Shown piece by piece: positions 26,888 to 60,851 of a stretch of 64,000 bases of DNA (position 1 is the first letter of the stretch; the number at the start of each line of letters is the position of its first letter). The notes under the pieces are model-generated. The model was not told the origin of the DNA, made no database searches, and saw nothing but the letters and a program-made list of their open reading frames with translations. Source of the stretch: a virus; the IMG/VR virus record IMGVR_UViG_3300044712_002706, positions 1 through 64,000 of that record; one strand, given 5' to 3'. Both the position numbers and the translations under genes were made by a program.

Positions 26888-26889
26888 AT

Positions 26890-28467
26890 TTATTTTCCTT
26901 TATGGTTGCAAATTGGCAACGAAAGCATTGCTGTCTTTATATGCGGAACAGACAAATCTTCTATGGGCGAATAATGCGTCGCTGGTCGACTTGTTATCCC
27001 TACATCACCACTGTAGCGTTTGGCAGTATCGCGGGCATCTGCCAAGCCTATCCCAGTTCCAATTCGGCCGCGCTGATTAGAAAGTCTCCCTCGCCAGCCC
27101 AATTGAAAAATAAGATCCCCCTCTATTTCATCCTTGGGGATAGGCACCCCATAATCTTCAATTTCGAGACAGACTCGATCTGCATTGATGTAACTGCGAA
27201 TTTCAATCCAGGGTTTTACATTCGAATCGCGTGACCAACTATATTTGATAGCGTTATGTAGCAGGTTATTTATTACGCGTATAATGTCATGCCGGCCAGC
27301 CCACACGCAGACGGCATCTGCGCGATTATCTGACCGAAAACTAACTCCCTTGTAATCAGCGTAATCCGTTAGCCCCTTTATTGCTTCTTTTACCAACTCC
27401 CAGAACTCACAAACTTCCGGTTTCTCGGCCTTCTTGACGCCGGTAATAACACGTTCGCGCAAATCCCGCACCATGTAATCTGTTTCTAGAACACGATCTT
27501 GTACCTGGCGAAGCGCAATCAGGCATGTGATTCGTTCGAGTTGTTCGGCGCTGTGCTTAACTTCTCGGACAAATTCTTGCTTAAAACTGCCTCTCTTTAG
27601 TTTGCCTAAAATATCAATTACTTGGCGCGCTGCTCTGCGTAGAACAGGTACACGCGTTTCGGCAATATTGATCTTCTCCACTTCTTCGATGGTGGATAAC
27701 AGCTTTTCTAGTTCTGTCCAATCATCAGGCGAGAGAGCCTCTCTTTGGATGGGAGTTTCAACGGATACAAGCAACTTACCGAGTGTTGAAATCAGACTCT
27801 TCCTCGGCCCAGTCAATTCTTTCCAAATCTGGTCTGTGGGTGGGAGTGTTTTTCCCTTGAACGGATCGGAGCCCAAAGCATTTAATGTAGGCGTGATTGC
27901 ATATCCAACCTGGTGCAAGGTAGCAGATAATGTGTGAAATGTTCTCCCCACATCCTTTTGTAAATCCTCGATGTTTTCCCGAAGACTCTTTTCTGCTTCA
28001 CGAAGGTGTTTTTCATCAGTAATATCTTTAGAAATGCCAAAGGTACCAATAATTCTATTCTCTTCATCTCGCAAAGGCATCTTAGTGGTGGTAACCCATG
28101 TATCTGGTCGATCTAGCCAAGTTTCTTTTTCCTCTTTTGCCACCAATGATTCCCCTGTTTGCATTATGCGTTGCTCATCCTGATATGCTTGCTCGGCATG
28201 TTCCTTGCTGAAATAGTCAAAATCGCTCTTGCCAATTGCTTCAGATGCATCATTCACTCCAAATGCTTTGGCTTCTGAACTGGAGATTTTGATAAAACGG
28301 GATTTGGTATCTTTAAAGTAGATGTGCTCAGGAAGATTATCCAATAGGGCTTTGAGGAGATGCGAATCGGATGTAACTGAATATTCTTCATTCTCCTGCC
28401 CGATGATCTTGGGTTGTAAAGTTTCATTGGCTACTTGGTTTGTGTTGTGATTGTCTTCCATATACAT
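26890..28467 (-). CDS. PAS-domain sensor histidine kinase
   Basis: PAS/PAC (IYFKD..SRF, IIGTFGISKDIT); NLLHNAIKYS N-box, D.G, GTGIGL. Confidence 0.9.
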   Translation of the reverse strand: MYMEDNHNTNQVANETLQPKIIGQENEEYSVTSDSHLLKALLDNLPEHIYFKDTKSRFIKISSSEAKAFGVNDASEAIGKSDFDYFSKEHAEQAYQDEQRIMQTGESLVAKEEKETWLDRPDTWVTTTKMPLRDEENRIIGTFGISKDITDEKHLREAEKSLRENIEDLQKDVGRTFHTLSATLHQVGYAITPTLNALGSDPFKGKTLPPTDQIWKELTGPRKSLISTLGKLLVSVETPIQREALSPDDWTELEKLLSTIEEVEKINIAETRVPVLRRAARQVIDILGKLKRGSFKQEFVREVKHSAEQLERITCLIALRQVQDRVLETDYMVRDLRERVITGVKKAEKPEVCEFWELVKEAIKGLTDYADYKGVSFRSDNRADAVCVWAGRHDIIRVINNLLHNAIKYSWSRDSNVKPWIEIRSYINADRVCLEIEDYGVPIPKDEIEGDLIFQLGWRGRLSNQRGRIGTGIGLADARDTAKRYSGDVGITSRPATHYSPIEDLSVPHIKTAMLSLPICNHKGK

Positions 28468-28901
28468 AAACCCTTTTGCTATGCTCCTGATTTTCAACCT
28501 GTTTATTTATCTATCAGCCGGGAATAGTTGAATTTGTTTTCATAGTGTGGAGAACCCGAGTTTAGACACTATGGTTTTCTGTTCCATAATTCGCGGCCTG
28601 TGCCCGAAGCCAACACAGACGGCGCTAGAACTAATTTTGTCTAAACTTGAGTTATAGAAAACGTAGGATATTTCCCCGAAGGTTTGTGTATCGGGAAAAT
28701 GCTATCTCATTAAGATTTGGCTTATATAACAAGCATTCTGCACAATGTCATAGCACTATTAACTTCACATGCAGTACCCCCTCACAGGGCTTGATCTTCT
28801 TAACTCCAGGTGACAACCAAAAACAATAAATATATGACATCACCAATAAATACCCCAATGTTTTCTAATATTTATTATAGTTACGTACCAGAAAAAAGCA
28901 A

Positions 28902-30257: not shown

Positions 30258-30461
30258 TTACATCCTCATGGCATGAGAAACCGGCTGCCGCCCGTTACCC
30301 AGCGCCTGGCGTTTTTCGGTAGCCAGGGCAATGGCCTGGCTCTTGCTGCTGGCCCAGACGGTCTCGATGACGCCGTCGGTGAACGAGACAGCCCACTGGC
30401 GCAGGGTAGTGGTGGCGTAGGTGGCGAGTGTTTTGGCGGTCTTGGTGGCGGTGGGGTTCAT
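30258..30461 (-). CDS. Small hypothetical protein
   Basis: ATGA overlap with the upstream gene; RBS. Confidence 0.45.
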   Translation of the reverse strand: MNPTATKTAKTLATYATTTLRQWAVSFTDGVIETVWASSKSQAIALATEKRQALGNGRQPVSHAMRM

Positions 30462-31040: not shown

Positions 31041-33068
31041 CTAGCCGCCAAAAGCGGGCAAATCCGAAGTAGTAGTAGCACTTTCGAGATATTCAATCGC
31101 CTGGTCAAGCTTGGCACAGAACGAACCGGCATACTCTTTGCCCACCGAGCGGGCCATTTCGCGCTTACTGCCGTCGTTGCGCCAGACTTCCTCGATGTCT
31201 TGTGCCAATTCGATGGTCTCCCGGCTCCAGACCTGACCGATGACAGGTTCGTGCGATGGCTGCGGGGCCACCCGCCACTCAGAGAGCGGCTGGACGGGGC
31301 GAGATTGGACGTAAGCACGCAGCTCATCATCGCTGGGGTGGAAGGCCACGCCACGCGTCATCTCGCCGGTGAGCATGGCCAGGAACTGGTTCTCAGCCAG
31401 GCCCTCGGCCCCACGCGCATCGAACATGGCCTGGCTGGTCGAACCATCGCGCATGCGGAAGGCCACCCGCCCGCAGTTGTCACGAACTGTCAAACCTTCC
31501 TTACCCAGTGTGCGATGGGTGGGGTCGGTGGTTGCTCCGACGAAGGAGATACCCATCTTGCGACCCTTGCTGGTGATGGCAATGGCTGCGGCCCAGATGC
31601 GGCGGCGAAGTTCGGGGGATGCCATCGTAGCCAGGGCGACCAGTTCGTCTATTACGACCATGATCTGAGAATCATCCTTGCCTGCTTCGCGAAGGCTCAG
31701 GCGAGACCAGGTCGAGACCCCGGCAGCTTTCAGGACAGCACTGCGGCGACCTACTTCGGCGGCGACACTTTCCAGGGCATCGGCGATGGCGGCGGGAGTC
31801 TCGTCTACGGTAACCAGGTTAGGGTGGCCCAACAGCGGGGCGAAGTCGCCGCCGGCGTCGTTGAGCAGGATCACCCGTTGGCCGCGGGCAAGCGCGGCAG
31901 CGGTGATCGGGCGCAATCCACACATGGTCTTGCCCGCCCCCGACGTGGCGGCGATCAGCAGGTGTGGGGTCTTGAGCGGGTCCAAAAGCAGCGGGCCGGC
32001 CTTGCCCACGCCGAGTGGGATGGTTTGTCCTTGCCAGGTCTGGAGCAGCTCCCAGGGGGCGATATCCGGGAGTGTGATGGACTCATCATCTTCTTCCACG
32101 GCACTGTCAGCGATCTGCGGCGGCTCCATGTCCTTGCGGATGAGACCCAGGGCGGCAGCGCGCAGCGGGTTCTTGCGGGGCGCACCAACCTGCATCGTAT
32201 TGGCGGCGATGAGCAGTTCGGCAGCCTGGCTGCGGGCGGTGACCTGGGCCTGCAGTGGGACATCCAAAATCCCAGGTTGCGAGACCGCACCACCCGGCAT
32301 CACGGCCAGGGCTGGCCCAAACTGACGGGTGGGGTCGAGAATGACCACCCCACCACCGGCGACGGGGACGGTGACATAGCCTTTGCCATCTGGCCCAAAA
32401 CGCCACAGGCCCAGCCGCACCATGATTGCTACCCGGAACTGCCAGGCAGACTGGACAAGCAGCCCACACGCAACCACGGCCAGGATAGCCAGCAATGACC
32501 AGAAGATGCGATACCCCCAGGTGCGAAACAGGGCGGTTTGTGCTTCGCTGACGCGCTGCTCCTGGATGCGCTCCACTTCGGCATTCGCATTCGCCACAAC
32601 CACGGCGTTTTCGGCTTCTCGGCGCACGGCGTCAGCGGTGGCGGCAGCGTCCAGGCCTGCCTGCACCACAGCGGTCTGGGTGCTCTTGATGGCATTGTCG
32701 GCAGCCTGGGTGGATTGGGCGCTGGCGGTTTCATAGGCCCGCTGGGTTTCCTGGCGAACGCCCTCGGTCTGTTTAGCGGCGTGCTGTTCGGTAGCAGCTG
32801 CAGCGGTCAACTCCAGGCTGACGGCGGTAGCCCGCACACTCAGTTCACTCATTTGTGCCTGGCCGAAAGCGGTGGTGGCCTGCGCCCCGGCGACGGCACT
32901 TTGAGACGTGGCGACAAAAGCTGGGATCAGCGTCTCGGTGGCAACTGGGCCAGGTGTTCCACCGGCGAACGTTGGGATACCCAGGCCAGGGCCACCAGCA
33001 CAAGCGATGGTGCTGGCCAGCATGACGAGAGCGACGATCAGGAGTTTAGCGGCGGTTGAGCGGTTCAT
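31041..33068 (-). CDS. FtsK/SpoIIIE (TraB-like) DNA translocase with lipoprotein-type N-terminus
   Basis: PHLLIAATSGAGKT Walker A, VVIDE Walker B, KGRKMGI, GAEGL motifs; N-terminal TIAC lipobox and TM segment. Confidence 0.85.
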   Translation of the reverse strand: MNRSTAAKLLIVALVMLASTIACAGGPGLGIPTFAGGTPGPVATETLIPAFVATSQSAVAGAQATTAFGQAQMSELSVRATAVSLELTAAAATEQHAAKQTEGVRQETQRAYETASAQSTQAADNAIKSTQTAVVQAGLDAAATADAVRREAENAVVVANANAEVERIQEQRVSEAQTALFRTWGYRIFWSLLAILAVVACGLLVQSAWQFRVAIMVRLGLWRFGPDGKGYVTVPVAGGGVVILDPTRQFGPALAVMPGGAVSQPGILDVPLQAQVTARSQAAELLIAANTMQVGAPRKNPLRAAALGLIRKDMEPPQIADSAVEEDDESITLPDIAPWELLQTWQGQTIPLGVGKAGPLLLDPLKTPHLLIAATSGAGKTMCGLRPITAAALARGQRVILLNDAGGDFAPLLGHPNLVTVDETPAAIADALESVAAEVGRRSAVLKAAGVSTWSRLSLREAGKDDSQIMVVIDELVALATMASPELRRRIWAAAIAITSKGRKMGISFVGATTDPTHRTLGKEGLTVRDNCGRVAFRMRDGSTSQAMFDARGAEGLAENQFLAMLTGEMTRGVAFHPSDDELRAYVQSRPVQPLSEWRVAPQPSHEPVIGQVWSRETIELAQDIEEVWRNDGSKREMARSVGKEYAGSFCAKLDQAIEYLESATTTSDLPAFGG

Positions 33069-33435
33069 CAGTTTTGCTCCAATCCCGAAGGATGGCGGCG
33101 AGTTGGGTGGTTTCTGGGTCGGGCAGGGCACGGTAAGGGCGGCGACGTGGGAGAGAGTAAGGAATTTCTGAGTTGGGTGTAATGCGGCGAATTTGCGCCT
33201 GGTTGGTGATGCGGTAGACGGTCATCAGGATGGCGATTGGCGTGATGATGACGGCCAGGGCCAGGATGGCAATCACACACTGGCTGGTTTGCAGGGTGGT
33301 GGCCATCACTGTCATGGCGGCAGCGTTGGCAGCGCTGGCGGCGGCGCTCATGGCAGCGGTGCCCAGGGCACAGATGCCGGACAAAATGACAAGGCCGGCA
33401 GCCAGCGAAACCAGCACATTGGGCTTATTCTCCAT
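33046..33435 (-). CDS. Membrane protein
   Basis: Two hydrophobic segments; overlapping operon organisation. Confidence 0.55.
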   Translation of the reverse strand: MENKPNVLVSLAAGLVILSGICALGTAAMSAAASAANAAAMTVMATTLQTSQCVIAILALAVIITPIAILMTVYRITNQAQIRRITPNSEIPYSLPRRRPYRALPDPETTQLAAILRDWSKTDEPLNRR

Positions 33436-36284: not shown

Positions 36285-37325
36285 ATGCAAGAACATCAAA
36301 CCCAAACTCAAGCCCATGTTGAGCACATGATGCGCACGCCAACCTTGGCCGATGCCGTAGATACATTTGTGCGTCTGGAGCTTGAACTCAACGACCGACC
36401 GGCGACAACGATCCGTTGGTATAGGATGCGGCTGGATGCAATGTCATCCCATATTGGGCCTGAGATGCCCCCGAATATGGTGATGGACGTTGACCTGCTG
36501 GAGTTCATGTCAGAGCTCAGACGGCGTGAGGTGCGCTATGAAAACGCACCGAGGCCGAAAGAGACTGGCAAGCTTTCCGTGAATACGCTGCGGGGATATG
36601 CCAAGGCGCTACGCCGGTTCTGGGCGTGGATGGAGCGAAAGAAATTCACCGAGGACAATCCTGCCAGTGATTTGCCGGTGCCAGGCAAGAAGAAGGTGGC
36701 AAAACGAGGGATCAGTGATGCCGACCAGGATGCGATGATTGCTGCATCTCGGCCAACCTGGGACGGTGGCCCACTCAGTGACGATGACATTCGCTCGTTC
36801 CGGGATTACGCCATTCTGTGTTTCCTGGACTCGACCGGCTGCCGATTGGGTGGCTTGGCGCACCTGACCCTGCGGGATATCGATCTGGATAACCCGAAGG
36901 AGAAGTTGCGTAAGCGTGCCTATGTTGTGGAGAAGGGGGATAAGGGGCGGTACGTTTTCATGAACGAACGCTGCCAGACGGCGATGAAAGCCTGGTTGCA
37001 GGTTCGCCCCCGGTGCGGCTCATCGAACGTCTTCATTGGCTATGTCAATGGTGCTGAGTCGTGGAAGAAGTTGGCTGAGGCCGGCATTTACACGGTGGTC
37101 AAAAAGTACGCTATTCTCTCTGGCGTAGCTTCAAAGCCCGGAGCCCTGTGGTCTCCCCATCAGTGGCGGCATCGTTTCGGGCGTCGTTGGTTGGAGCGTG
37201 GTGGTGATCTTTCCCGCCTGGCCCAGTTGATGGGCCATTCAACGGTGCAAATCACCAGTGAGCATTATGGTCAACTGGAGATTGACGTGCTCCAGGACGG
37301 CTACGACCAGATCATGGGTCAGTAA
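36285..37325 (+). CDS. int: Tyrosine integrase/recombinase
   Basis: RDYAIL..L..TGCR, KGDK.R, HQWRH, LMGHS, catalytic Y; adjacent att-like site. Confidence 0.93.
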   Translation: MQEHQTQTQAHVEHMMRTPTLADAVDTFVRLELELNDRPATTIRWYRMRLDAMSSHIGPEMPPNMVMDVDLLEFMSELRRREVRYENAPRPKETGKLSVNTLRGYAKALRRFWAWMERKKFTEDNPASDLPVPGKKKVAKRGISDADQDAMIAASRPTWDGGPLSDDDIRSFRDYAILCFLDSTGCRLGGLAHLTLRDIDLDNPKEKLRKRAYVVEKGDKGRYVFMNERCQTAMKAWLQVRPRCGSSNVFIGYVNGAESWKKLAEAGIYTVVKKYAILSGVASKPGALWSPHQWRHRFGRRWLERGGDLSRLAQLMGHSTVQITSEHYGQLEIDVLQDGYDQIMGQ

Positions 37326-38933: not shown

Positions 38934-39844
38934 CTTACCCCCCACAAACGATTGAGCGGAAAGCGCCGCCAGCGCCCTCCGCTCGGTTGGTCAGCACCGA
39001 GAAGCGCAGAACCACTATCATTGTAGCAGAAAGCTACCCAGGTTGTATGCCCGATTTATCTGAAACCGCCTACATCCCCGCTGACATGAACTGGCGTGTG
39101 TTGACGCCCAGCCAGGCAGCCCGCACGATTGCGGCAGCCAACGAGCATCTCAGCCCGGCGTTGATCGTGGTGCGCAGCTGGACGCCGAAGGGCAGCGAAG
39201 GCCGGCGTGGGTGGGGCTACCGCCACAATACGTTTGTGATGGTGGGCGGGAAGGCCAACCCGTTGAAGTTTCGCCGGTCTTATGGCGCTGGTGCTCCTGG
39301 GGAGCGGGTGGAAATCCGCCACAACGGGGGCTGCCAGGTGTGTGGTGAAATCCACGCCGATTATGCGCTGACCTGGGCGCAGGCCCCGGACGGCTGGGTG
39401 CTGGCTTGCGGTGCTTGCGCGCAAGCAAACCTGCTGCACGTGCAGAACGTGGTCAGCCCGTTTTACTGGCAGGGCGTTGGGAAAAGCGGGATATCGTCGC
39501 TGTGCGAATATGCGGAACCAGCCTATGCCTACCGCATTTTTGTAGATTTGACCACCGGCGGCGACGTGGAAGTGGCCGGGTACGCTGAAACGCTCGAAGC
39601 GCAGGAAGCCATCGAAGACGGCATCACTGCGCTTCGAGCCTGGGTGCGGGAGCATTCACGGATGCCATCGCTGGAGGAAGCGGCGGTCACGCTGGCCTTC
39701 GACAGTGGGGATCAGCACCCGGCGGCGGTGCTGCGCAGCGAAAAGAGACGGATAGGAAACGTCCTTTCACGCCTGGGGGAATTCGAGACGTTCAACGGCC
39801 TGATGGCATTTGTACGCCAGACGAAAAACGGGGGTGAGCGATGA
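38921..39844 (+). CDS. Hypothetical early protein (CxxC...CxxC)
   Basis: 307 aa ORF in operon. Confidence 0.65.
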   Translation: MQPVTYPPQTIERKAPPAPSARLVSTEKRRTTIIVAESYPGCMPDLSETAYIPADMNWRVLTPSQAARTIAAANEHLSPALIVVRSWTPKGSEGRRGWGYRHNTFVMVGGKANPLKFRRSYGAGAPGERVEIRHNGGCQVCGEIHADYALTWAQAPDGWVLACGACAQANLLHVQNVVSPFYWQGVGKSGISSLCEYAEPAYAYRIFVDLTTGGDVEVAGYAETLEAQEAIEDGITALRAWVREHSRMPSLEEAAVTLAFDSGDQHPAAVLRSEKRRIGNVLSRLGEFETFNGLMAFVRQTKNGGER

Positions 39845-40460: not shown

Positions 40461-40520
40461 AGTTTTATGCCGGTGGCATCCTGGCAAGGCCGCCAGGATG
40501 CCACCGGCAGGAGGAACATC

Positions 40521-41327
40521 ATGGACGAAAAGTTGTTAGCTGAAATTCTGGCGCAGATGGTGCGGATTGCCGACTCGCTCGACATCATCGCCCGGGCTGG
40601 TGCTCCGCAAGAGCCGAACTACATCAAGCCGATTGGCGAGTATGTTGGGTTCGATTGGGCGACGATTGGGGCCACGGTGGTGAACAGCGACAATGACGGC
40701 CCGACGCACCTGGAATGGGGTGGGTTCATTTGGACCCGCCGAAGCCCGTCGAACAAGTTTGCTCCGGCCATCTGGTACAGCCGGGCGAGCGGGAAGGATG
40801 AAGAAGGGAACAACAACTACCTGAAGCTGATCACCTTTAAGACGATCAACGACGCCGACCCTATCCCTGGCAAAGTGGCGGCGGCCATTCCGCCGGCAGC
40901 AGCTCCGAAATTGCCGGTAGGGGGCCTTTCTCAGCCTGTTGGCGATGGTGCTGATAAAAAACCTTATCGAAACCATGAAAACACTACTTCAGCCAAGCCC
41001 CCCTCCCCCACCGGCCAGACGCCGCCATCAAATGGAAATGGCGAACCCAAGGCGGGTGAATTTGTGGGAACGCAAACCTACTACACGCTTGGAAGTGGTC
41101 GAAAGTGGAACCTTTCGCGTGAGTGGCTGGTTGAGATCGCTACCCTGGCTGGTATCAACACGCGTGTCGCCAAGCCGGATTTTTCAAAAGCATTTGCCTG
41201 GCTGCCCTACTTTGCTGAGGGGAAAGCGGGCGGCAAAGGACTGGCAGATTTGAAGGCGATTTTACAGCAGTGCAACATGGACGTGCATCAGGCTATCTCG
41301 ATGATGCGTGAGCAGGTGCGGCCATGA
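40521..41327 (+). CDS. DdrB-like ssDNA-binding/annealing protein
   Basis: FDW..IGA, RR, PAI.YSR and Y..L..F motifs recall Deinococcus DdrB; AGGAGG RBS. Confidence 0.55.
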   Translation: MDEKLLAEILAQMVRIADSLDIIARAGAPQEPNYIKPIGEYVGFDWATIGATVVNSDNDGPTHLEWGGFIWTRRSPSNKFAPAIWYSRASGKDEEGNNNYLKLITFKTINDADPIPGKVAAAIPPAAAPKLPVGGLSQPVGDGADKKPYRNHENTTSAKPPSPTGQTPPSNGNGEPKAGEFVGTQTYYTLGSGRKWNLSREWLVEIATLAGINTRVAKPDFSKAFAWLPYFAEGKAGGKGLADLKAILQQCNMDVHQAISMMREQVRP

Positions 41328-42034: not shown

Positions 42035-42294
42035 GCGAATTGCGTGAAACCTACTCCATTCCGACTCGAGCGAAGAGCGCCCACCCGAAGCGGGTTGTCA
42101 TTCGCCCATGCAGATACCCAAACCCTGACAGCTACTACGTCATCAATATTAATCGCCCGCACCGCAAGGACTACCGCTGCGAGTATCACCGGCAAGATCG
42201 CCAGGTCAATCGGATCATTGACCTGGTGGGGCGTGAAAAGTTCTTTTTTGAGTTAGACGGTGGAGAAATCGAACTGTCTACACTGGAGTTGTAA
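42031..42294 (+). CDS. Hypothetical protein
   Basis: GGAGG RBS, overlapping stops/starts. Confidence 0.5.
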   Translation: MSELRETYSIPTRAKSAHPKRVVIRPCRYPNPDSYYVININRPHRKDYRCEYHRQDRQVNRIIDLVGREKFFFELDGGEIELSTLEL

Positions 42295-43007
42295 TGACTA
42301 TCAAACGTTTATTTTTCGACATTGAGACGGTCGCCAACCCGGAGATGGTAGCGCTGCTGCCAGAGCCGAAGGCCCCGGCGACCTACAAAGACCCCGAAAA
42401 GATCGCCGCTTACGTGGCCGAGAAGAAAGCCCAGCAGCTGGCCGAAGCCGCCCTCGACCCGGATACGGGAAGCGTGGCGGCCATCGGTTGGATGGAGATG
42501 GGCGGCGAAGACGGGCTGGAATCGCCAAAGAGTCTGAACCGCAAGGCCCCGCGGCGGAAGGTCGAGCCGCAGGCCGAGATCATCCTGCCGGCCAGTGATG
42601 CGAAACTTTCTCCGGTGAACGATGAACGCTGTGTGCTCAGCCGCTTTTGGGATCGCTTTTCTGATAATAACGGCAACGTGATCGGCTACAACCTGCTGGG
42701 CTTCGACATCCCCTACCTGATGCGGCGCTCGATGGCGCTGGGGCTGAAGCTGCCGATGATCCCCTTCATGTCCCGCTACCGGGTGGAGCCGGTGACTGAC
42801 TTGTACGCCATTCTGTACAACTGGGGGCCAGGCAAGGGGCTGAAGACGGTGTGCAAGATGTACGGCATCCCAAACCCGCTGCCGGAAGTGGATGGCAGCC
42901 AGGTGGCCGGGATGGACGCGGCGATGCTGCGCCAGTACGTGTGCAGCGACGTGCTGCTGACGGCGGCGCTGTTCAGCAAGATGAACGGGATTTACTTCTC
43001 GCTCTAA
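42294..43007 (+). CDS. PolB-related 3'-5' exonuclease (DEDD)
   Basis: FDIET, GYN..GFDIPYL and Y..SDV motifs (Exo I-III). Confidence 0.85.
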   Translation: MTIKRLFFDIETVANPEMVALLPEPKAPATYKDPEKIAAYVAEKKAQQLAEAALDPDTGSVAAIGWMEMGGEDGLESPKSLNRKAPRRKVEPQAEIILPASDAKLSPVNDERCVLSRFWDRFSDNNGNVIGYNLLGFDIPYLMRRSMALGLKLPMIPFMSRYRVEPVTDLYAILYNWGPGKGLKTVCKMYGIPNPLPEVDGSQVAGMDAAMLRQYVCSDVLLTAALFSKMNGIYFSL

Positions 43008-43756: not shown

Positions 43757-44197
43757 CTATGGACAAAGTTTATACTCGTTCCATTCGAGTTTCTTGATAG
43801 CGGGGTCGTCAGAAAGAACATAAAAAGTTCCAGAAGATACAATAGAATCCCGATCTTTCCACCCTGTTGTTCCGTCTGGGTACTTCACCTTTAAGCCTTT
43901 TCCGCTGGGCATGGATGGGCAGTCGCTGGAGCCGCCCAATATCTCGAAAGCGTAGGTTTTTTCTTCTCCTCCCCCATAGTAAATCTTTACGCCAGCGTAG
44001 ACTTTCGCAAGTGGAGATGAGTATTTTTCCGCCGTTTTTGTTGCTTCTTCTGTTGGGTGTGGCGATGATGGTGCAGAAGAGTCCCGTGGCTGAAGTACAA
44101 AATAAGCAATGATGATCGCCGCAATCGAAGCGAAAAAAGTGTACTTGAGACACGAGTTTCCCTGTCGTCTCTGTTGGTGTTCTCCGAACGTTGTCAT
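43757..44197 (-). CDS. Single-TM protein (moron; superinfection exclusion candidate)
   Basis: AAGGAG RBS, lower GC, opposite orientation to neighbours. Confidence 0.6.
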   Translation of the reverse strand: MTTFGEHQQRRQGNSCLKYTFFASIAAIIIAYFVLQPRDSSAPSSPHPTEEATKTAEKYSSPLAKVYAGVKIYYGGGEEKTYAFEILGGSSDCPSMPSGKGLKVKYPDGTTGWKDRDSIVSSGTFYVLSDDPAIKKLEWNEYKLCP

Positions 44198-44257: not shown

Positions 44258-44277
44258 AGTGCTTGCGCGCAAGCACT
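44258..44277. promoter_or_regulatory. Perfect 20-bp palindrome (operator candidate)
   Basis: AGTGCTTGCGCGCAAGCACT between divergent genes. Confidence 0.55.
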
Positions 44278-44321: not shown

Positions 44322-44531
44322 ATGACAAACAGTCCGGCTGCGGAACAATTGAGCGAGCGGGAAATGATACAGGTTGCGAATAGCCTCGTGGCGCACATCG
44401 GCACGAAGCGGTTTATCTTACTGGCCCAACTATTAGAAGACGTGAAGAAAGATACCCGGTATGGCCACATTTCTATTGTGGTGGTAGACGGCCGGGTGCG
44501 GGGGATGAAGGCGGAGAAGAGCTATGAATAG
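44322..44531 (+). CDS. Small DUF2292/YezD-like protein (candidate late antiterminator)
   Basis: C-terminal YGHISIVVVDGRV......KS resembles the YG.v.I.v.dG.v pattern of that family; directly precedes the late leader. Confidence 0.5.
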   Translation: MTNSPAAEQLSEREMIQVANSLVAHIGTKRFILLAQLLEDVKKDTRYGHISIVVVDGRVRGMKAEKSYE

Positions 44532-44544
44532 TACCAAAATCCTG

Positions 44545-44643
44545 TATAATTAATTTAAGCCTACGCCGTAGGCCTTGACCCTAGAGCACTGGGTATCCAG
44601 CGGGGTCGTTTGCAGTTTATTCTGCAAACGACCCCGCTTTTTT
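44545..44643 (+). promoter_or_regulatory. Late leader 1: promoter plus antiterminator/terminator switch
   Basis: TATAAT, GCCTAC hairpin, 32-nt core identical to 56074-56105, strong terminator with T-run. Confidence 0.75.
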
Positions 44644-44665
44644 GTTGTTTTGCTTAGGAGGCAAT

Positions 44666-45133
44666 ATGAAAAACAATCGTGTGATCAACCTGGTTTTATC
44701 GGCCCTGATGCTGGTGGCGCTGATTTTCGTGTCTGCGCACCCGGCCAGTGCCCAAGCTCAAACACCACCGGCGTCTGTGGATGCGTGGCTTGCGTTCGGC
44801 AAGGAAATTGCCACGCGGGGGGCGTGGTTGGGCCTGATCATCCTGCTCGACCTGATCTTGGGCGTCACCGTGGCGGTCAAGAATAAGACATTTCAATGGC
44901 AGAAGCTGGCGGACTTCCTCGGCGATTATGGGCCGAAGGTGGTGGGCTGGCTGTGTCTGGAAGTGTTACGGATGCTGCCGACGGATGTTGCTGCCGTCGC
45001 CGGCGTCGTGGGTACATTGGGCGTTGGCGCGTATGCCATCATTGTAGTAGCGGCTGTGGGCAGCGTGCTCAGCAGTGCCCAGGGCCTGGGGATAGTTCCG
45101 GCCAATGCGCCGGGGGTTTCGGCGAAGGGCTAA
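44666..45133 (+). CDS. Holin-like membrane protein
   Basis: Several TM segments; LD.I.G...A.K...F...KL motif; near endolysin. Confidence 0.65.
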   Translation: MKNNRVINLVLSALMLVALIFVSAHPASAQAQTPPASVDAWLAFGKEIATRGAWLGLIILLDLILGVTVAVKNKTFQWQKLADFLGDYGPKVVGWLCLEVLRMLPTDVAAVAGVVGTLGVGAYAIIVVAAVGSVLSSAQGLGIVPANAPGVSAKG

Positions 45134-48224: not shown

Positions 48225-48975
48225 GACACGCCGCTTATTACTGCACCGGAACGGGCCGGCCTTATGGCCTGAGCACAAGCCCCTCCACGAAGTGCTTGGC
48301 CTGATGAGTGAAACCCCGGAGACGGTCTGGGAAACCACCTACCAGGGAAACCCGACTCCGCCCGCGGGCACTGTCTTTCGCCGGGAGTGGTGGCGAGAGT
48401 CCAACCGCTACGACGCGGCGGATCGGTCGCATCTTGCGCAGTGTGTGGCCCGCTGGATTTCGTGGGACACCGGTCTGAAGGACGCCGACGGCAACGCTTA
48501 TACGGCTGGCGTGGTGGGCGAGTTGTGGCCCGATTACCGGATGGCCGTGCGTGAGATTTACCGGGAGCGTTTGCAGTTCCCGGATTTGCCGCCCAAGATT
48601 GAATGGCTTGCGCGCAAGCACAATGCCGATGGAAAACTGCGGGGAGTGATCATCGAAGACAAGGCGAGCGGCATCAGCGCTTATCAAACGCTGCGGGCAA
48701 GCGCAAATGACTGGCTGGCCGACATCTTGATCGCCTTCGAGCCAAACGGCGACAAGATTGTGCGGGCCAACCAGGCGGCGGTGTGGTGTAAGAATGGATG
48801 TGTTCTTTTACCCTGGCCGGGCATGAGCGTGCCCTGGCTGGTGGACTTTGAAGACGAGCTGTTCAACTTTCCGGGCAGTTCGTTCATGGATCAGGTGGAT
48901 GCCTTTGATCAACTGATCCTGTATACCGAGAACCTGCTGGCCGAGGGCTGGCGGGCAAGAAAAGGCAGTAACTAG
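48217..48975 (+). CDS. Terminase large subunit, nuclease part
   Basis: ALWPE, YQG.P, SWDT, IEDKASG, DK..RA and DQVDA motifs. Confidence 0.85.
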   Translation: MAETRRLLLHRNGPALWPEHKPLHEVLGLMSETPETVWETTYQGNPTPPAGTVFRREWWRESNRYDAADRSHLAQCVARWISWDTGLKDADGNAYTAGVVGELWPDYRMAVREIYRERLQFPDLPPKIEWLARKHNADGKLRGVIIEDKASGISAYQTLRASANDWLADILIAFEPNGDKIVRANQAAVWCKNGCVLLPWPGMSVPWLVDFEDELFNFPGSSFMDQVDAFDQLILYTENLLAEGWRARKGSN

Positions 48976-50147: not shown

Positions 50148-51950
50148 ATGGCAATTCGGTTTGACGCTCTAGCCGACTATATATACAGGACTACCAGCCT
50201 GCCATCGCTCACAACACATACCTGGATGGCCTGGGTCTATATTGCCGTAGACCAGAACGCCGCCAGCGATATGTGGTTGTTCCTGGATGGCGCAGGAGGG
50301 TATTTCACGCTCGGAACAGCGTCGGATGGAACCACATTACGAGTTGTCAGTTCGACGGTGTCGGAAACTACTGGAACTAACCTGTCAACCGGCACCTGGT
50401 ATCACATCGCCCTTGTAAAGAGCGGATCAAGTGTGTCGGTGTATGTAGACGGCAATCTTGACATCGGCAGAACGGAATCGGTGTCTTTTACGCCGGCTTA
50501 CATCGTCATGGGGTCAAACTCTGTCAGTCAATATCTCAACGGTCGAGTTGACGATGTAAAAATCTGGTCTGGTGTTGCACTGACCCAGGCTGAGATACAG
50601 CAGGAAATGGTTATTAAGCGGCTGGTGCGCACGGATGGCATCAACGGTTTTTATCCAACATTTCCCGGCGCAAGTGAACGCCTGCTGGATTACAGTGGTT
50701 TAGGTCGAAACTGGTCGGCAGGCGGCACGCTGACCGACGAAGACCCGCCACCAGTTAGTTGGGGAAGCCCTGACCCGATTGTACTTGTGGCCGTGGCGAC
50801 ATTGGTTGTCCAGGATGCAGCCAGCGCCAGCACGCTCGATAATGCCGCGCTGACCCAACACCATGCCCTGGCTATCGCCGACGGCGCAAGTGCATCGGCT
50901 CTGGACAATGCTGCACTGACACAGCACCACCATCTGGCTGTGGCGGATGCGGCCAGTGGTGCAGCCCTCGATGGTGTTGCTTTGACCCAACACCACGTGC
51001 TGACGATTGGTGATGCTGCCAGCGGGACGGCGCTCGATAATGCCGCCCTGACCCAGCACCACCGATTGGCGATCAACGACGCAGCCAGCGCCAGCACGTT
51101 GGATAATGCGGCGCTGACCCAGCATCATCAGATTGCTATTCAGGATGCCAGTAGCAGCACGACCCTGGATCAGGTCAGCCTTACCCAGCATCACCAATTA
51201 GCTGCCCAGGATGCGGGCAGCGCCAGTGCCCTCGATGGCGTAACGCTGGCCCAACACCATGTGCTGGCCGTCGCAGACGAAACCAGCGCGACGGCGTTGG
51301 ATAATGCCGATCTGACGCAGCACCACCATCTGACCGTAGCAGATGCGGAATGTCCATCAGCGTTGGATGGCGTATCCCTGGCCCAGCACCACGTGTTGGC
51401 GGTCGGAGATGCGACTTGCGGCACGGCCCTGGATAATGTCACCCTGGTGATTGCAGGGCAGCTTGTGGTGGATGATCTGACGGCTGCCACGGCCCTGGAG
51501 CCGGTCTCGCTAACTCAGCATCACACGTTGGCAATTAGCGATGCCGTAAGTGGCGCATCCCTGGACAATGTTACCCTGGCGGTCGCAGGCCATCTTGACG
51601 TAGACGAACTGGTATCTGCAACATCCCTGGACACAGTGACGCTCGCTCAGCAGCACCGGCTTGTGACCCAGGATATGGCGAGCGCATCCACCCTGGATAA
51701 TGTCACGCTCCTGGGCACCACCACCACCCTGGCGATTGATGATGCGGACTGTGCCACGACGCTCGAAACGGTTACGTTTGAGATAACGGTCATCGTCACG
51801 CTGTACGCTCGTGACCTGGCCGTGACGCTCGAAGAGCGCAACCTGGCCGCCACCTTTTACGCTCGCAACCTGGCTGAGACACTCGACGAGCGCAACCTGG
51901 ATGTCGATCTGCCGGGCCGACGCCTGGCATTCACACTGGAGGAACGATGA
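50148..51950 (+). CDS. LamG/concanavalin-domain protein with about 15 x 22-aa QHH repeats (fibre)
   Basis: WYHIALV...YVDG...NG.VDDVKIW LamG motif; tandem repeats. Confidence 0.8.
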   Translation: MAIRFDALADYIYRTTSLPSLTTHTWMAWVYIAVDQNAASDMWLFLDGAGGYFTLGTASDGTTLRVVSSTVSETTGTNLSTGTWYHIALVKSGSSVSVYVDGNLDIGRTESVSFTPAYIVMGSNSVSQYLNGRVDDVKIWSGVALTQAEIQQEMVIKRLVRTDGINGFYPTFPGASERLLDYSGLGRNWSAGGTLTDEDPPPVSWGSPDPIVLVAVATLVVQDAASASTLDNAALTQHHALAIADGASASALDNAALTQHHHLAVADAASGAALDGVALTQHHVLTIGDAASGTALDNAALTQHHRLAINDAASASTLDNAALTQHHQIAIQDASSSTTLDQVSLTQHHQLAAQDAGSASALDGVTLAQHHVLAVADETSATALDNADLTQHHHLTVADAECPSALDGVSLAQHHVLAVGDATCGTALDNVTLVIAGQLVVDDLTAATALEPVSLTQHHTLAISDAVSGASLDNVTLAVAGHLDVDELVSATSLDTVTLAQQHRLVTQDMASASTLDNVTLLGTTTTLAIDDADCATTLETVTFEITVIVTLYARDLAVTLEERNLAATFYARNLAETLDERNLDVDLPGRRLAFTLEER

Positions 51951-56038: not shown

Positions 56039-56141
56039 TATAATCAATTTAAGCCTACTATGCGTAGGCATTCGACCCTAGAGCACTGGGTATCCAGCGG
56101 GGTCGCTCACAGTTTATTCTGTGAGCGACCCCGCTTTTTTT
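56039..56141 (+). promoter_or_regulatory. Late leader 2: promoter plus antiterminator/terminator switch
   Basis: Extended -10 TGCTATAAT; same core as 44545-44643 with compensatory stem changes. Confidence 0.75.
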
Positions 56142-56190: not shown

Positions 56191-56877
56191 ATGTTGTTCA
56201 AGCCCAAATCAGGATTGTGGTTCGCACCCAGCACGGACAACGCCACCGGGACATCACCCGTTCAGACACCGGATACAACGCCGCCGGCTGAGCCAGGTGG
56301 GTCGAACGGCGGAGCAACTGGGCCACAAGCTACCGCGCCGGCGTCACCGGCGGCGACCGCCAAGCCGCTGACGTTTGAGAGCGAAGAGAAGCTGGAGAGA
56401 TACATCGAGGATGCTCTGAAAGAGCGCTTGGAGCGTGCACAGAAGAAGGCCGATAAACTGGCCGCAGAAGCCCGCGAGAAGGCCGAAGCCGATGCTGCCG
56501 TCAAAAACGGCGAGTGGCAGAAGTTGGCCGAAACACGCGAGAGCAAGCTCAAAGAACTTTCGGCGCAGCTCGAAACCATCCCCGGATTACAGACCAAAGC
56601 TGAGCGTTACGAGAAGGCACTCAACGCCTACCTGGCGACGCAGCGCTCTGGACTGCCAGCACACGTGACCGTGCTGCTGGATAAGCTCGACCCGGTGGAT
56701 CAGCTCGAATACATCGCCAAAAACCGTGAAGCGCTCAGCCAAAACGTGAGCATTGCGAACGCTGGCAGCGCCCACATCCCACCCACGCCCACTGCGGGAA
56801 ACCCAGGCCAGATCACATCTGAACAGATGAACCAGGCCCGGCAAGCGCAGCTGGCGCGGACAAAGAGTAATTTTTAG
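56191..56877 (+). CDS. Capsid scaffolding protein (copy B)
   Basis: Paralog of 1..666. Confidence 0.75.
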   Translation: MLFKPKSGLWFAPSTDNATGTSPVQTPDTTPPAEPGGSNGGATGPQATAPASPAATAKPLTFESEEKLERYIEDALKERLERAQKKADKLAAEAREKAEADAAVKNGEWQKLAETRESKLKELSAQLETIPGLQTKAERYEKALNAYLATQRSGLPAHVTVLLDKLDPVDQLEYIAKNREALSQNVSIANAGSAHIPPTPTAGNPGQITSEQMNQARQAQLARTKSNF

Positions 56878-56892
56878 TAACAGGAGTATTCC

Positions 56893-57693
56893 ATGACTGA
56901 TTTAGCGTTAGTCACTGCAAACCGCCTGTATCTGGTTGAAAGTCTGGAGCAGATGACCCTGCCCGCTGTGGAAGCGATTGTGGCGGGCCAGTCTGTTCGG
57001 ATCGACACCAGCACAGGCAAGTTCACCAAAGCCAATGGCACCACGGCCGCAGAAAAGCGGGCGTATGGCATGGCACTCAAGACCGTGGCCGCCGGGCAGC
57101 CGGTGACGGCGGTTCGTAAGGGTGTGGTAGATGGGTACGATTTATCGGGCCTGGCCTACGACGCCGATGTATATTTGTCGGATACCGATGGAATGCCGGC
57201 GGACGCCGCAGGCACCGTCGAGCGGAAAATCGCCAAGGTTATCCCAGCCTTTGCCACCACCCTGGGAACGGCGGCAGATAAACTGCTGCGCGTGGATTAC
57301 AACGAAGGCGAGCAATCGCAGGTATTGGTTGTCACCAGTGAATTACTGGCAGCCAGCGTGGATAAGTGGATGTTCGTAGCCGACCGCCCTTACCAGGTGA
57401 CCGGCGTCCGTGAAATCCATAGCGTTGTTGGCGGGTCCGGCGCAGTGGTACGCCCTCGCAAGGTGACCGCTGCCGGAACCGACGCCCCCGGTGCTGCAGC
57501 TGGCACGACCGTGAAGGAATTGACCGCCGCCGACATCGGCCTGGAAACCACCATCAACACCACCCAAAGCCCGGCGCTTTCGGCCACCGCTGCCGACCTG
57601 CTGTTGGCCGCCGGTGACAAAATCGGCCTGAACCTGGGCGGCACATTGACCGGCTTGGTGGGGAGCATCTCCATCATCCTGAAGGCGCTGTAG
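56893..57693 (+). CDS. Head decoration-like protein (copy B)
   Basis: Paralog of 679..1479. Confidence 0.65.
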   Translation: MTDLALVTANRLYLVESLEQMTLPAVEAIVAGQSVRIDTSTGKFTKANGTTAAEKRAYGMALKTVAAGQPVTAVRKGVVDGYDLSGLAYDADVYLSDTDGMPADAAGTVERKIAKVIPAFATTLGTAADKLLRVDYNEGEQSQVLVVTSELLAASVDKWMFVADRPYQVTGVREIHSVVGGSGAVVRPRKVTAAGTDAPGAAAGTTVKELTAADIGLETTINTTQSPALSATAADLLLAAGDKIGLNLGGTLTGLVGSISIILKAL

Positions 57694-57703
57694 GAGGCAC
57701 ATC

Positions 57704-58795
57704 ATGGCTAACCAAGTTCTTATGGGATTTCTGAACCTTCAGGGTATGTTCGACCAGCGCGTAAGCTCTGTCAACATTGACCTGATCAACACTGCTATTC
57801 AGCAGAGCGTGGATGAGCACAACCGGCAGGTTGCGGCAGTGATGTCGTTATTCGTCGCCAAAAATCCGCGCTTCAACCAATCGCCAACAGTCCGTTTCAA
57901 AACCCCTGTTGCGGTTCGTAATCAACCCCTCGATGAAAATGGCCGCGCTCGCCCGATTCGTGTAGCGGGTCATTATGACGTGGCGTTCCCCCTGCAAGGC
58001 AGCGGTAACGCCTGGGGTGCGAATTTCGTGGCCCGCGAGAAGATGACGGTGGAAGATGCCAACAACATCACTGCCACCCTCATCGATGGCGACACGCGTT
58101 GGATGCGTGACCACGTACTGGCGGGCTTGTTCACCAACGTCAGTTGGACGTATACCGACGATGATGACGATGTGGGCAGCCTGACCATCAAAGGCCCGGC
58201 CAACGGCAACACCGACACCTATCTGGTGCAAGGTGGTGCAGATGCGGGTGCGACCGATACCCACTTCCTGGCGCAGTCTGATGCTATCGCCACTGCCCAC
58301 AACCCATTCCCGACCATGTATCAGGAACTCATGGAGCACCCTGAGAACGGCGGGGAAGCGGTATGCTTCGTGCCGACATCCAATAAGGCTGCCGTCGAAG
58401 GCGTCAGCGGGTTTGTGGTAGCACGCCGACCGAACGACCCCGTTCAACCGGGTTCAAGCACCGACGTGCTGGTAGGCGACCTGCCGGCCAGCGTTCCGGG
58501 CAAGCTCTTTGGGTATCTCAACGATACATGGATGGTTCACTGGCCGACCCTGCCGACGGATTACCTGATCGAAGTCGCCACCCAGGGCGAGCGAGCTTTG
58601 GGGATGCGCGAGCACCCCGAAGCCAGCTTACAGGGCTTCAAACGGGTGGCCGAACGCAATGACCATCCCTTCATGGAAGCGCAGTACCTTCGCTTCGCCG
58701 GGTTCGGCGCATGGAACCGGGTGGGCGTGGTCGTGCAGCGCGTGGGCAATGGCAGCTATGCCATCCCCACCAACTTCACCAGCCCGATGCCCTAA
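57704..58795 (+). CDS. Major capsid protein (copy B)
   Basis: Paralog of 1490..2578. Confidence 0.75.
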   Translation: MANQVLMGFLNLQGMFDQRVSSVNIDLINTAIQQSVDEHNRQVAAVMSLFVAKNPRFNQSPTVRFKTPVAVRNQPLDENGRARPIRVAGHYDVAFPLQGSGNAWGANFVAREKMTVEDANNITATLIDGDTRWMRDHVLAGLFTNVSWTYTDDDDDVGSLTIKGPANGNTDTYLVQGGADAGATDTHFLAQSDAIATAHNPFPTMYQELMEHPENGGEAVCFVPTSNKAAVEGVSGFVVARRPNDPVQPGSSTDVLVGDLPASVPGKLFGYLNDTWMVHWPTLPTDYLIEVATQGERALGMREHPEASLQGFKRVAERNDHPFMEAQYLRFAGFGAWNRVGVVVQRVGNGSYAIPTNFTSPMP

Positions 58796-58807
58796 GCCTG
58801 TTTTGAT

Positions 58808-58839
58808 AGCGGGGGCAGCCTGGCTGCCCCCGCTCTTTT
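58808..58839 (+). terminator. Terminator after MCP
   Basis: AGCGGGGGCAGCC-T-GGCTGCCCCCGCT-CTTTT. Confidence 0.65.
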
Positions 58840-58849
58840 AGGAGCTTAC

Positions 58850-59236
58850 ATGCACCCACGAATTCTAGCCGAACGCACTGCTCTGGCCGCTGAGCGTCTG
58901 ACCGAGGACGCCCGACGGCTGGCCCAGGCACTCGACCTACCAGAAGACCTGGTCAAAGACCTGACCCCAGACGAAAACAATGTACAGGTCAGGCCGATGC
59001 TGGTGCTGGAAGCCTGCGCCAACCTGGTGAAAGCGGCTGCCGATAAGTTGGCTCAGCCAGTCGAGATTGAGCCGATCCCCCCATTCGTAATCGAAACCCA
59101 GGAAGGCAACATCACTCTGGAGCTTTCTGCAATATCGCCGGCACCTATCGCCGAAACCGGCGATGGTGTGGCCAACACCGCCATTTCCGACGGTACTGAA
59201 GCAAAAACGAAGGTGAAGCGTGGCGGCTCCAAGTAG
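58850..59236 (+). CDS. Hypothetical phage protein (copy B)
   Basis: Paralog of 2639..2977. Confidence 0.7.
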   Translation: MHPRILAERTALAAERLTEDARRLAQALDLPEDLVKDLTPDENNVQVRPMLVLEACANLVKAAADKLAQPVEIEPIPPFVIETQEGNITLELSAISPAPIAETGDGVANTAISDGTEAKTKVKRGGSK

Positions 59237-59678
59237 CTACACCGAGATCACCCTCGGCCAGTACGTGCTGAACGTGCTGGGCCAAATGGCCGCGTATATC
59301 GGATGGACGGACGCCGCGCATGCCGGCGAAGTGGTCAACGACATCCTGCTCGAACTGGGCGTGGACGATATCAGCACGATCAGCGGGTCCGAAAACATCC
59401 GCCACCTGCGGGCTGTGGCTCGATATCACGCCTGGAAGACGGCGGCAGAGTTGACCAGCGGGAAGTATGACTTCTCGACCGGCGACTCAGGCAGCTTCAA
59501 GCGCAGCCAGATGCACACGATGGCCCAGGAAAACGCCGAGAAAGCACGAGCAGAAGCCAACGAGGCGGCGCTCGCTGCTGGCAGCGAAGCCTACCCGGGC
59601 TACGAAGTGACCACGGTGCAGGCGGTCTACCAAGAACCCTACCAGGCCAGCTATCTGCTTGACGAGGACGACCTGTGA
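59220..59678 (+). CDS. Head-tail adaptor (copy B)
   Basis: Paralog of 2961..3428. Confidence 0.6.
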   Translation: MAAPSSYTEITLGQYVLNVLGQMAAYIGWTDAAHAGEVVNDILLELGVDDISTISGSENIRHLRAVARYHAWKTAAELTSGKYDFSTGDSGSFKRSQMHTMAQENAEKARAEANEAALAAGSEAYPGYEVTTVQAVYQEPYQASYLLDEDDL

Positions 59679-60040
59679 TCGAAGAAGCCGAACTGGCCGA
59701 CTTGCAGACCGACGCCGTGGAGAGTTTGACCACGGCGTGCTACGTTTCGCACACGCCACTTGTCAGCGACGGCGCTGGCGGCCAGGTGAACGGCTCCACC
59801 GTTCTCTACGGGCCGTATCTGTGCCGGGTGGAGCAGAGCGGTCGCAATGCCGACAGTATCCCCGTCGTCGCCGGCGGGCAATCGCCCAGGCGCTATGTAT
59901 ACATCGTCCTCGAACCCGGTGCACTCGTTTCCCCGCAGGACACAATCGTCGTCGGGTTGAAACGCTACCCGGTGATCTCCGTCCCCGACCGCACGCTGAG
60001 CATTCTACTGCGAGTGCAGTGCTGGGAGTCGCTTTCATGA
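59675..60040 (+). CDS. Head closure protein (copy B)
   Basis: Paralog of 3425..3796. Confidence 0.65.
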   Translation: MIEEAELADLQTDAVESLTTACYVSHTPLVSDGAGGQVNGSTVLYGPYLCRVEQSGRNADSIPVVAGGQSPRRYVYIVLEPGALVSPQDTIVVGLKRYPVISVPDRTLSILLRVQCWESLS

Positions 60041-60450
60041 TCACGCCAGTCGTCAAAATCGTTGAGAACCGCATCCCCTTGCTGACGGATACCGTCCGCC
60101 AGCGAGCGAGTGATTTGACGATGAAGACGGCGCTGCGCATCCAGGGCCGCATTCGCACCGGCATGGCTGATGCCAAGACCGGACGGGTGTATCTGCGGCG
60201 TGGAATCGCCCACCGGGCCAGCGCCCCGGGCGAGATGCCGGCAGTAGATACCAGCCACCTTTCCAACTCAATCCAGGTGGAACGCATGCCCGATGGCGTA
60301 AGTGCGGCGGTCTTCACCAACGCCGAATACGCTGAAGTGCTGGAGTTTGGCGGAGCGAGAACTGAAGCCAGGCCTTTCATGCAGCCGGCAGCGGATGACG
60401 AGATACCCGGCTTCGAAGCCGAAGTAAATCGCCTTCTAGCAGGACTATAA
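60037..60450 (+). CDS. HK97 gp10-like protein (copy B)
   Basis: Paralog of 3793..4209; ATG at 60037. Confidence 0.8.
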   Translation: MITPVVKIVENRIPLLTDTVRQRASDLTMKTALRIQGRIRTGMADAKTGRVYLRRGIAHRASAPGEMPAVDTSHLSNSIQVERMPDGVSAAVFTNAEYAEVLEFGGARTEARPFMQPAADDEIPGFEAEVNRLLAGL

Positions 60451-60452
60451 CG

Positions 60453-60851
60453 ATGGAGCTGATCGACGTTGAGAACCTGATCCATGACCGGTTGACCGCA
60501 GACGGCGCACTGGCGGCTATCGTAGGCGACCGCGTGTACTCGATGGATGCTCCAAAGGGTGCTGCGATGCCCTACGTGGTCTACAAGCTGAGCAGCGCAC
60601 CGGTGACCAACGGCGTAGGCGGTGTGGTGATCCTGGCCAGGCCCAGCTACCTTATCGTCGTATCTGGACAAACTCGTTCGCTGTCGTCTCTCGAAGCGGC
60701 CGCAGAGCGAGTGCTGGCACTTTTGCAGGGCAACTTCGGGGCCATTGGCGGCGTGCTGCGCGAGCAGGTGGCCTACCCTGAACTCTTCGATGGCATTTCC
60801 TACCGCCATCTTGGCGGCCTATTTGACTTTTATGCTTCGCCCACTTCATAG
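60453..60851 (+). CDS. Tail terminator (copy B)
   Basis: Paralog of 4209..4604. Confidence 0.75.
   Translation: MELIDVENLIHDRLTADGALAAIVGDRVYSMDAPKGAAMPYVVYKLSSAPVTNGVGGVVILARPSYLIVVSGQTRSLSSLEAAAERVLALLQGNFGAIGGVLREQVAYPELFDGISYRHLGGLFDFYASPTS

Follow-up and report, generated by a model that had tools for sequence, protein, structure and literature searches.

Two late gene blocks of an uncultivated phage are each preceded by a short leader that can fold either as a bulged hairpin or as an intrinsic terminator. The two folds are conserved as alternatives, overlap one another, stand ahead of late genes and are strictly linked to one family of small proteins. We lean towards the reading that a 69-aa protein encoded upstream of the first leader stabilizes the first of these folds, an antiterminator, and so turns on late transcription. 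This is also what an initial annotation of the DNA had proposed, and our analysis supports that interpretation overall, with binding of the RNA by the protein deduced from their co-occurrence; the direction of the switch is one that we infer.

The stretch that we analysed (the window) covers positions 1-64,000 of an IMG/VR provirus record of 76.6 kb that originates from a rhizosphere metagenome. Consistent with the initial annotation, it contains two promoter-leader-terminator units, at 44545-44643 and 56039-56141 (Table 1). The cores of the two leaders, described there as identical, form an exact 32-nt repeat that occurs twice in the window and in none of its shuffled versions, and no further copy is present in the 76.6-kb record. 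The first leader does indeed begin 14 nt past the end of the reading frame for the 69-aa protein. Note that Logan unitigs of the probable source run start or stop exactly at the repeated core (44626, 56074 and 56103), as they should if the sample contains a genuine two-copy repeat; in a soil run, a relative likewise breaks off at 56077. No RNA run was among the sequencing runs listed as containing the stretch.

Table 1 Features of the window discussed in the text (R1, covariance model)
Feature	Position	Strand	Remarks
69-aa gene (P0001)	44322-44531	+	candidate trans-acting factor; distantly DUF2292/YezD-like
Leader 1, -10 box	44545-44550	+	TATAAT; begins 14 nt past the 69-aa ORF
Leader 1, 5' hairpin	44559-44573	+	GCCTAC-GCC-GTAGGC; accessory, this phage only
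Leader 1, core	44577-44608	+	32 nt
Leader 1, antiterminator	44577-44607	+	truncated-leader fold, covariance model (R1 52.4 bits, E 2e-10), covariation counts
Leader 1, P1	44577-44582; 44602-44607	+	5' arm; 3' arm
Leader 1, antiterminator middle	44583-44588; 44589-44600; 44601	+	bulge AGAGCA; P2 hairpin; C
Leader 1, intrinsic terminator	44600-44643	+	17-bp stem 44600-44637, T-run 44638-44643
First gene after leader 1	44666-45133	+	155-aa membrane protein (holin-like), three hydrophobic segments
Leader 2, promoter	56039-56044 (TATAAT)	+	extended -10 TGcTATAAT; -35 TTTACT
Leader 2, 5' hairpin	56053-56069	+	GCCTAC-TATGC-GTAGGC; accessory
Leader 2, core	56074-56105	+	32 nt
Leader 2, antiterminator	56074-56104	+	R1 52.7 bits, truncated-leader fold
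Leader 2, P1	56074-56079; 56099-56104	+	5' arm; 3' arm
Leader 2, antiterminator middle	56080-56085; 56086-56097; 56098	+	bulge; P2; C
Leader 2, terminator	56097-56141	+	stem 56097-56134, T-run 56135-56141; between MuF-like gene (end 56029) and scaffold-like gene (start 56191)
Type I restriction specificity subunit	19457-20764		
Large TPR protein	22499-24487		
PAS histidine kinase	26890-28497		
DdrB-like ssDNA-binding protein	40467-41327		E 2e-12; early region
PolB-type 3'-5' exonuclease-like protein	42294-43007		early region
600-aa protein with laminin-G/concanavalin-like domain	50148-51950		

At full length both leaders fold as the terminator (-48 and -52 kcal/mol, with z of -8.4 and -9.3), and when truncated before the 3' arm of the terminator both fold into a (C/U)GACCC...GGGUCG helix, P1, around a CUGG-GUAU-CCAG hairpin, P2. 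In leader 1 the terminator scan gave a stem composed of a 16-bp GCGGGG.../...CCCCGC helix and one closing A-U pair, the 5' arm of which includes the 3' arm of P1. The two terminator stems differ at three mid-stem positions per arm, and, as had been pointed out in the initial annotation, every one of these differences is compensated on the opposite arm. Most details of the layout said to be common to both leaders are borne out by the sequence, but its GCCTAC hairpin and AATTTAA word are confined to this phage, being absent from the nine other phages in which we found the element.

Relatives of the leader were recovered by several routes. Relatives of the 69-aa protein are encoded at seven IMG/VR loci; the same element was present in the DNA 3' of the protein gene in L064/L065 and L067, and a structural scan found it in L062, L063 and L066 as well. 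The structural scan found the element in none of 58 loci from phages with a related portal, and neither blastn, nhmmer nor a covariance model detected the leader in those loci. The covariance model R1, built from seven copies of the element, found exactly one copy in each whole record that encodes the protein; in one of these, G001, 4.7 kb separate the gene from the element downstream. Moreover, three degenerate DNA-pattern searches that were blind to the protein recovered the known contigs together with three new true elements (L086, L088 and L097), each with the protein gene upstream on the same strand; five chance matches to the patterns lay within coding sequence and had neither a terminator nor the protein gene. 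Together with the two copies in this phage, these searches place 11 copies of the element in 10 phages, the other nine being uncultivated phage contigs. (Note that this sample is small and that it comprises fewer than ten independent lineages, L062, L063, L088 and G001 being mutually close.) Genome contigs contained neither a relative of the protein nor the element pattern, GenBank phages gave no match to the protein or the leader, and a metagenome scan anchored on the portal gave no matches. Viral contigs yielded no close relatives of the 69-aa protein or of the scaffold protein, and a second protein subfamily had no viral loci. The initial annotation had allowed that the leader might be a described element or riboswitch; there were no Rfam matches in the whole window at gathering scores, and at E up to 10 the region 44400-44750 gave only chance miRNA and lncRNA rows far below the cut-offs.

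All of the copies share one layout: a TATAAT box, a 6-bp P1, a 6-nt bulge consisting of AGA and three more nucleotides, a 4-bp P2 hairpin (with a GUAU loop in nine of the 11), a single C, the 3' arm of P1, and then a ribosome-binding site and the first late gene. This P1/P2 fold is backed by covariation. In the alignment of the 11 sequences, 97.3% of the cells are standard pairs, both sides have changed at five of the ten pairs, and the covariation score was reached by none of 500 shuffles; when the partner was slid by one to three columns, pairing fell to 38-67%. An earlier count on the first seven copies also supports the fold. P1 occurs as GACCCU/GGGGUC, GGUUCU/GGGACC, GGCUCU/GGGGCC and GGUCUC/GGGACC, and P2 as CUGG/CCAG, GCGG/CCGC, GCAG/CUGC and CCGG/CCGG. 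Because several of the pairs are G-U, the fold exists on the plus strand only, which identifies it as an RNA structure. A third helix, between the 5' arm of P1 and the GGGU of P2, was compatible with 95% of the cells but was matched by 171 of 500 shuffles and was set aside. Readings of the core as a K-turn, a CsrA site or an ANTAR target were also rejected, as the strand opposite the bulge has a single C and the loops are unsuited.

The 3' arm of P1 is embedded in the base of the terminator's 5' arm in each of the 11 copies, and every terminator is followed by a U-tract. The antiterminator alone is worth -9.6 to -13.2 kcal/mol, compared to -26 to -43 kcal/mol for the whole leader, the terminator being 15-30 kcal/mol the more stable of the two. 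In L062 and L067 the terminator has an A-C mismatch at a position where P1 retains a U-A pair, which argues for selection on P1 itself. Thus, the mutually exclusive fold that had been proposed from two leaders holds up in the truncated folds, in the covariation among homologues and in the overlap seen in each copy. The element has the organization of a transcription attenuator, with exclusive conserved helices and an intrinsic terminator directly upstream of a gene.

The overlap also bears on whether antitermination would be local or processive. If the P1/P2 RNA served to load the protein onto RNA polymerase, as in N-nut or Q-like systems, for processive antitermination over long distances rather than local competition between hairpins, then an overlap of P1 with the terminator in 11 of 11 copies would be superfluous. 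The repetition of the whole unit before the second late block of this phage and the number of terminator-like sites in the late region (23, compared to 17.1 +/- 4.1 in shuffles, which is no excess) also speak against such a mechanism. In its favour, the logic of Q, pR' and tR' is matched, with a regulator gene, a constitutive promoter, an immediate terminator and lysis and terminase genes; the element stands at the extreme 5' end of the transcript; phages of 37 kb have a single element for a late operon of ~20 kb; and the conserved TAGA could double as a -10-like pause signal. We judge processive action decidedly unlikely and favour local competition between the antiterminator and the terminator.

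A perfect TATAAT box precedes all of the copies (TATGAT in one), mostly with a reasonable TTGnnn -35 element. This box and P1 are separated by 5-9 nt in seven of the 11 copies, which would place the start of the transcript at P1; in this phage and L064 the spacing is 21-29 nt longer, and here the added nucleotides form the GCCUAC hairpin. The late genes downstream of the element, across the phages, encode a holin-like protein, a GH25 endolysin, an HNH protein, TerS and TerL. Leader 1 precedes the gene for the three-segment membrane protein, which has a GGAGG ribosome-binding site and begins 23 nt after the T-run, followed by genes for a membrane-anchored coiled-coil protein and a 367-aa protein as well as for the small terminase, the portal protein and a MuF-like protein. 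The genes behind leader 2 are the scaffold-like gene and the capsid and tail genes. In G003 and G047 a homologue of the three-segment membrane protein likewise comes first behind the element, the order in G003 being membrane protein, HNH, TerS and TerL; in G005 the order is two small proteins, GH25 endolysin, HNH and terminase. Because a ribosome-binding site and ATG closely follow the T-run, transcription of the late genes must traverse the terminator.

These arrangements weigh against the possibility that the units are small-RNA genes, similar to lambda 6S or oop, or the 3' ends of upstream operons, with a short RNA that acts in trans or stabilizes the upstream message and does not gate late transcription. 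A promoter and terminator so placed would yield a discrete RNA of 65-100 nt, and the terminator doubles as the end of the 69-aa gene's message in five phages, as this account would have it. Against it stand the ribosome-binding site and ATG close behind the T-run in all copies, the preservation of the alternative P1 pairing by covariation, and the fact that no separate late promoter was seen. We regard this explanation as most improbable, and we retain the view that the leaders gate the late genes.

What ties the element to a protein is its company. In an all-against-all BLASTP comparison, the 69-aa family was the only family common to all nine of the element-bearing contigs compared, the next best being present in six, and the tenth element-bearing phage, L097, carries it too. 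Conversely, every record that encodes the protein also carries the element. The gene is always upstream of the element and shares its strand; in five of the ten phages it is directly adjacent to the leader, and in the other five it lies 0.5-4.7 kb away with other genes in between. The 41 whole records from portal-related phages contained neither the element nor the protein, and their only rows were noise (one protein row of 15 bits and three RNA rows of 11-14 bits). The initial annotation had proposed co-occurrence as the test of its idea and had named leaders unlinked to the family as the outcome that would speak against it; each homologous leader proved to be linked, in all ten phages. Terminase and portal families vary among the element-bearing phages, and the module thus moves between otherwise unrelated genomes. 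Note that the same co-occurrence would equally follow from another use of the element by the protein.

We also considered the idea that the leaders form a genuine antiterminator/terminator switch that is set by a host protein, a small molecule, or the speed of the polymerase or level of NTPs, the 69-aa protein having another job in the module, for example as a DNA-binding regulator. The evidence for the RNA structure is independent of the protein, the protein has no known RNA-binding fold, and its gene is up to 4.7 kb from the element in some phages, all of which is compatible with such an effector. However, this family alone is common to the nine compared contigs and is absent where the element is absent, the core would be small for a metabolite pocket, comprising ~31 nt that include a 6-nt bulge and a tetraloop, and no Rfam riboswitch matched. 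We consider another effector unlikely, and the 69-aa protein remains our preferred candidate.

The initial annotation had likened the 69-aa protein, P0001, to the DUF2292/YezD family (PF10055). The resemblance is real but weak: against Pfam at E up to 10, DUF2292 alone matched P0001, at E 0.087 and 12.9 bits compared to a gathering score of 22 bits, and a record-restricted search agreed with this weak match. An exhaustive HMMER search found 25 distant homologues, all of 54-100 aa, which have in common the consensus LGxER...LAEL..DV..DTGYGxVxIV..DGRV..LKAEKSY, and 14 of the 26 family members match DUF2292 weakly (best E 2.4e-4). With scores below the threshold, the term 'DUF2292-like' denotes no more than a remote resemblance, and a distant relationship is plausible. 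Neighbours of P0001 in the Atlas are small hypothetical proteins from phages, Acidobacteriota and Chloroflexota, and one neighbour from a YezD cluster (TM 0.56 by query and 0.74 by neighbour over 46 aligned residues) is a lead only.

An AlphaFold (AF2) model of P0001 has two helices and a beta-hairpin (pLDDT 89), and fold searches with this model matched no solved fold (Foldseek E above 1, best Z 3.6). A two-copy model scored 0.68, the best control scoring 0.00; this mark was attained by 20 of 30 solved same-chain pairs and by one of 23 proteins solved as single chains. The two-copy runs had at least 93% of their contacts in common, with a partner pLDDT of at least 80. In the model, the dimer is joined by pairing of the two first strands, and the second strand, basic and conserved, faces outside. 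The modelling supports a putative P0001 homodimer. Searches of Pfam, the PDB and solved folds detected no relation of P0001 to a known RNA-binding or antiterminator domain, and we counted its approximately neutral net charge against an RNA-binding reading. (A search of PDB sequences gave a weak and insignificant likeness to the C-terminal region, ~104-138, of two MarR-type transcriptional regulators, which we rejected.) We found nothing in the literature on the function of DUF2292 or on a comparable phage switch.

The initial annotation had seen no Q, RinA or sigma-type late regulator in the window, and profile searches of the whole record bear this out. In six-frame searches of the 76.6-kb record, lambdoid Q (PF03589 and PF06530) had no match at E up to 1, under conditions in which an E. 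coli control was detected, and sigma-70 region 2 (PF04542) and RinA (TIGR01636) likewise had none in the record at E up to 1. A scan of ~60 ORFs against Pfam revealed no further candidate for a late regulator. Three occurrences of the palindrome GCTTGCGCGCAAGC are present, at 39413-39426, 44258-44277 and 48606-48619 (expected 0.01). Its second copy lies within a 20-bp extended palindrome in the promoter region of the 69-aa gene, between this gene and a divergent one on the minus strand (43757-44197), and may serve as an operator through which expression of the candidate antiterminator is timed.

Taken together, these observations suggest the following model. Each leader would be a self-contained attenuator at the head of a late operon. 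A sigma-70-type and apparently constitutive promoter would start a short RNA, in most of the relatives directly at P1, for which two folds would be available, the antiterminator and a much more stable terminator that share the 3' arm of P1. The terminator would win by default, because it is far more stable, could nucleate at its distal stem and could then displace P1, and only an RNA of 65-100 nt would be made. The 69-aa protein, encoded upstream on the same strand and probably a homodimer presenting a conserved basic beta-hairpin, would clamp P1, the bulge and P2 and prevent this displacement; the base of the terminator would then be unable to form, and RNA polymerase would enter the late genes. 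Likely contacts would be the invariant AGA, the adjacent U-G pair, the GUAU loop and the G-C-GGG junction. The two copies in this phage would place the lysis and packaging block and the head and tail block under one factor. We more tentatively raise the possibility that this ~70-aa dimeric kin of DUF2292/YezD, with its unrecognized fold, is an RNA-binding antiterminator, specific in both sequence and shape, of a 31-nt bulged hairpin at the 5' end of the late transcript and represents a new class of late switch.

Several other features of the record were observed. The head-tail genes at the left end (1-15000, 24739-25013 and 30322-30447) are colinear with 56191-64000, and on to 76657 of the record, at 72-87% nucleotide identity and with a period of ~56.2 kb. 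This duplication could reflect two related tandem prophages or a chimeric assembly of two strains. Because the record starts exactly at the ATG that matches 56191, a third copy of the leader would be located immediately beyond its left end. The two phage modules are separated by host-like or moron genes (15079-28497), among them the first three proteins in the lower part of Table 1. An FtsK/SpoIIIE-family ATPase (minus strand) and a tyrosine integrase are encoded at 31041-33131 and 36285-37325, and ARAGORN found no tRNA genes in the window. The gene for the 600-aa protein with a laminin-G/concanavalin-like domain contains a 66-nt (22-residue) tandem repeat at 50801-51446. Relatives of the portal include proteins of Chloroflexi-type metagenome bins.

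To our knowledge, the control of late genes has been detailed for only a few groups of cultivated phages, with Q, N, put, RinA/ArpU, late sigma factors, Ogr and Mor, and we know of essentially nothing on late-gene control in soil phages. We are also aware of local hairpin-competition antitermination only as a device of bacterial operons so far. The RNA and the protein family are undescribed in Rfam, Pfam (save for the weak likeness to DUF2292), the PDB and the literature that we searched. A 2023 catalogue lists 8,495 unnamed structured-RNA candidates from IMG/VR (PMC10690425), and the motif may already be among these. If our reading is correct, then the RNA (~31 nt) and the protein (~70 aa) would form a compact two-part module that recurs in otherwise unrelated phage genomes, bringing with it a structured RNA family and an RNA-binding fold that are both new. 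Phages would then employ local hairpin competition in the place that Q has in lambdoid phages, small viral and bacterial DUF2292-like proteins would have a first functional lead, and a compact and portable protein-RNA switch would be at hand. The motif also marks the starts of late operons in uncultivated phage genomes and can thus aid their annotation.

A comparison with known systems places the element among several of them. The likeness of the protein to DUF2292/YezD lies in its small size and a beta-hairpin of the GYGxVxIxVxDGxV type, although the phage family has an extra N-terminal helical hairpin; since DUF2292 has no known function, this likeness explains nothing as yet. The ANTAR proteins (EutV, AmiR and NasR), as well as HutP and PyrR, resemble the proposed system in that a protein controls the choice between antiterminator and terminator. 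However, ANTAR targets are two hexaloop hairpins, whereas the phage element is one bulged helix with a tetraloop hairpin, and the 69-aa protein has neither an ANTAR domain nor another known domain. Like lambda nut and HK022 put, the element is a phage RNA located just after a promoter that would suppress termination and, like put, it is present in two copies in the genome of this phage. In contrast, nut and put do not overlap the terminators that they suppress and act over long distances, put needing no phage protein, whereas the phage element overlaps its terminator and has no Rfam match.

The lambda pR'-qut-tR' region offers a close parallel in its arrangement: the regulator is encoded just upstream, and a constitutive promoter is followed within ~100 nt by a terminator, with lysis genes and terminase beyond. 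Lambda Q, however, binds DNA and the paused polymerase and acts processively, whereas this record has no member of a Q family and has an RNA fold, kept by covariation, that overlaps the terminator. In BglG, SacY and LicT, which act on bacterial sugar operons, a small dimeric RNA-binding module stabilizes an imperfect hairpin of ~30 nt with asymmetric internal loops (the RAT), the 3' side of which overlaps the 5' arm of an intrinsic terminator, termination being the default. The antiterminator of the phage element likewise overlaps the 5' arm of the terminator in 11 of 11 copies, and on the strength of this overlap the element would work like a RAT, which does not imply membership of that family. 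Indeed, the 69-aa protein has neither a CAT (CAT_RBD) nor a PRD domain, DUF2292 being its sole Pfam match at E up to 10, the RNA differs from the RAT in sequence and shape, and the setting is a late switch rather than the sensing of sugars. By analogy, the mechanism that we propose thus appears closest to that of BglG and SacY acting on the RAT, and its logic to that of Q.
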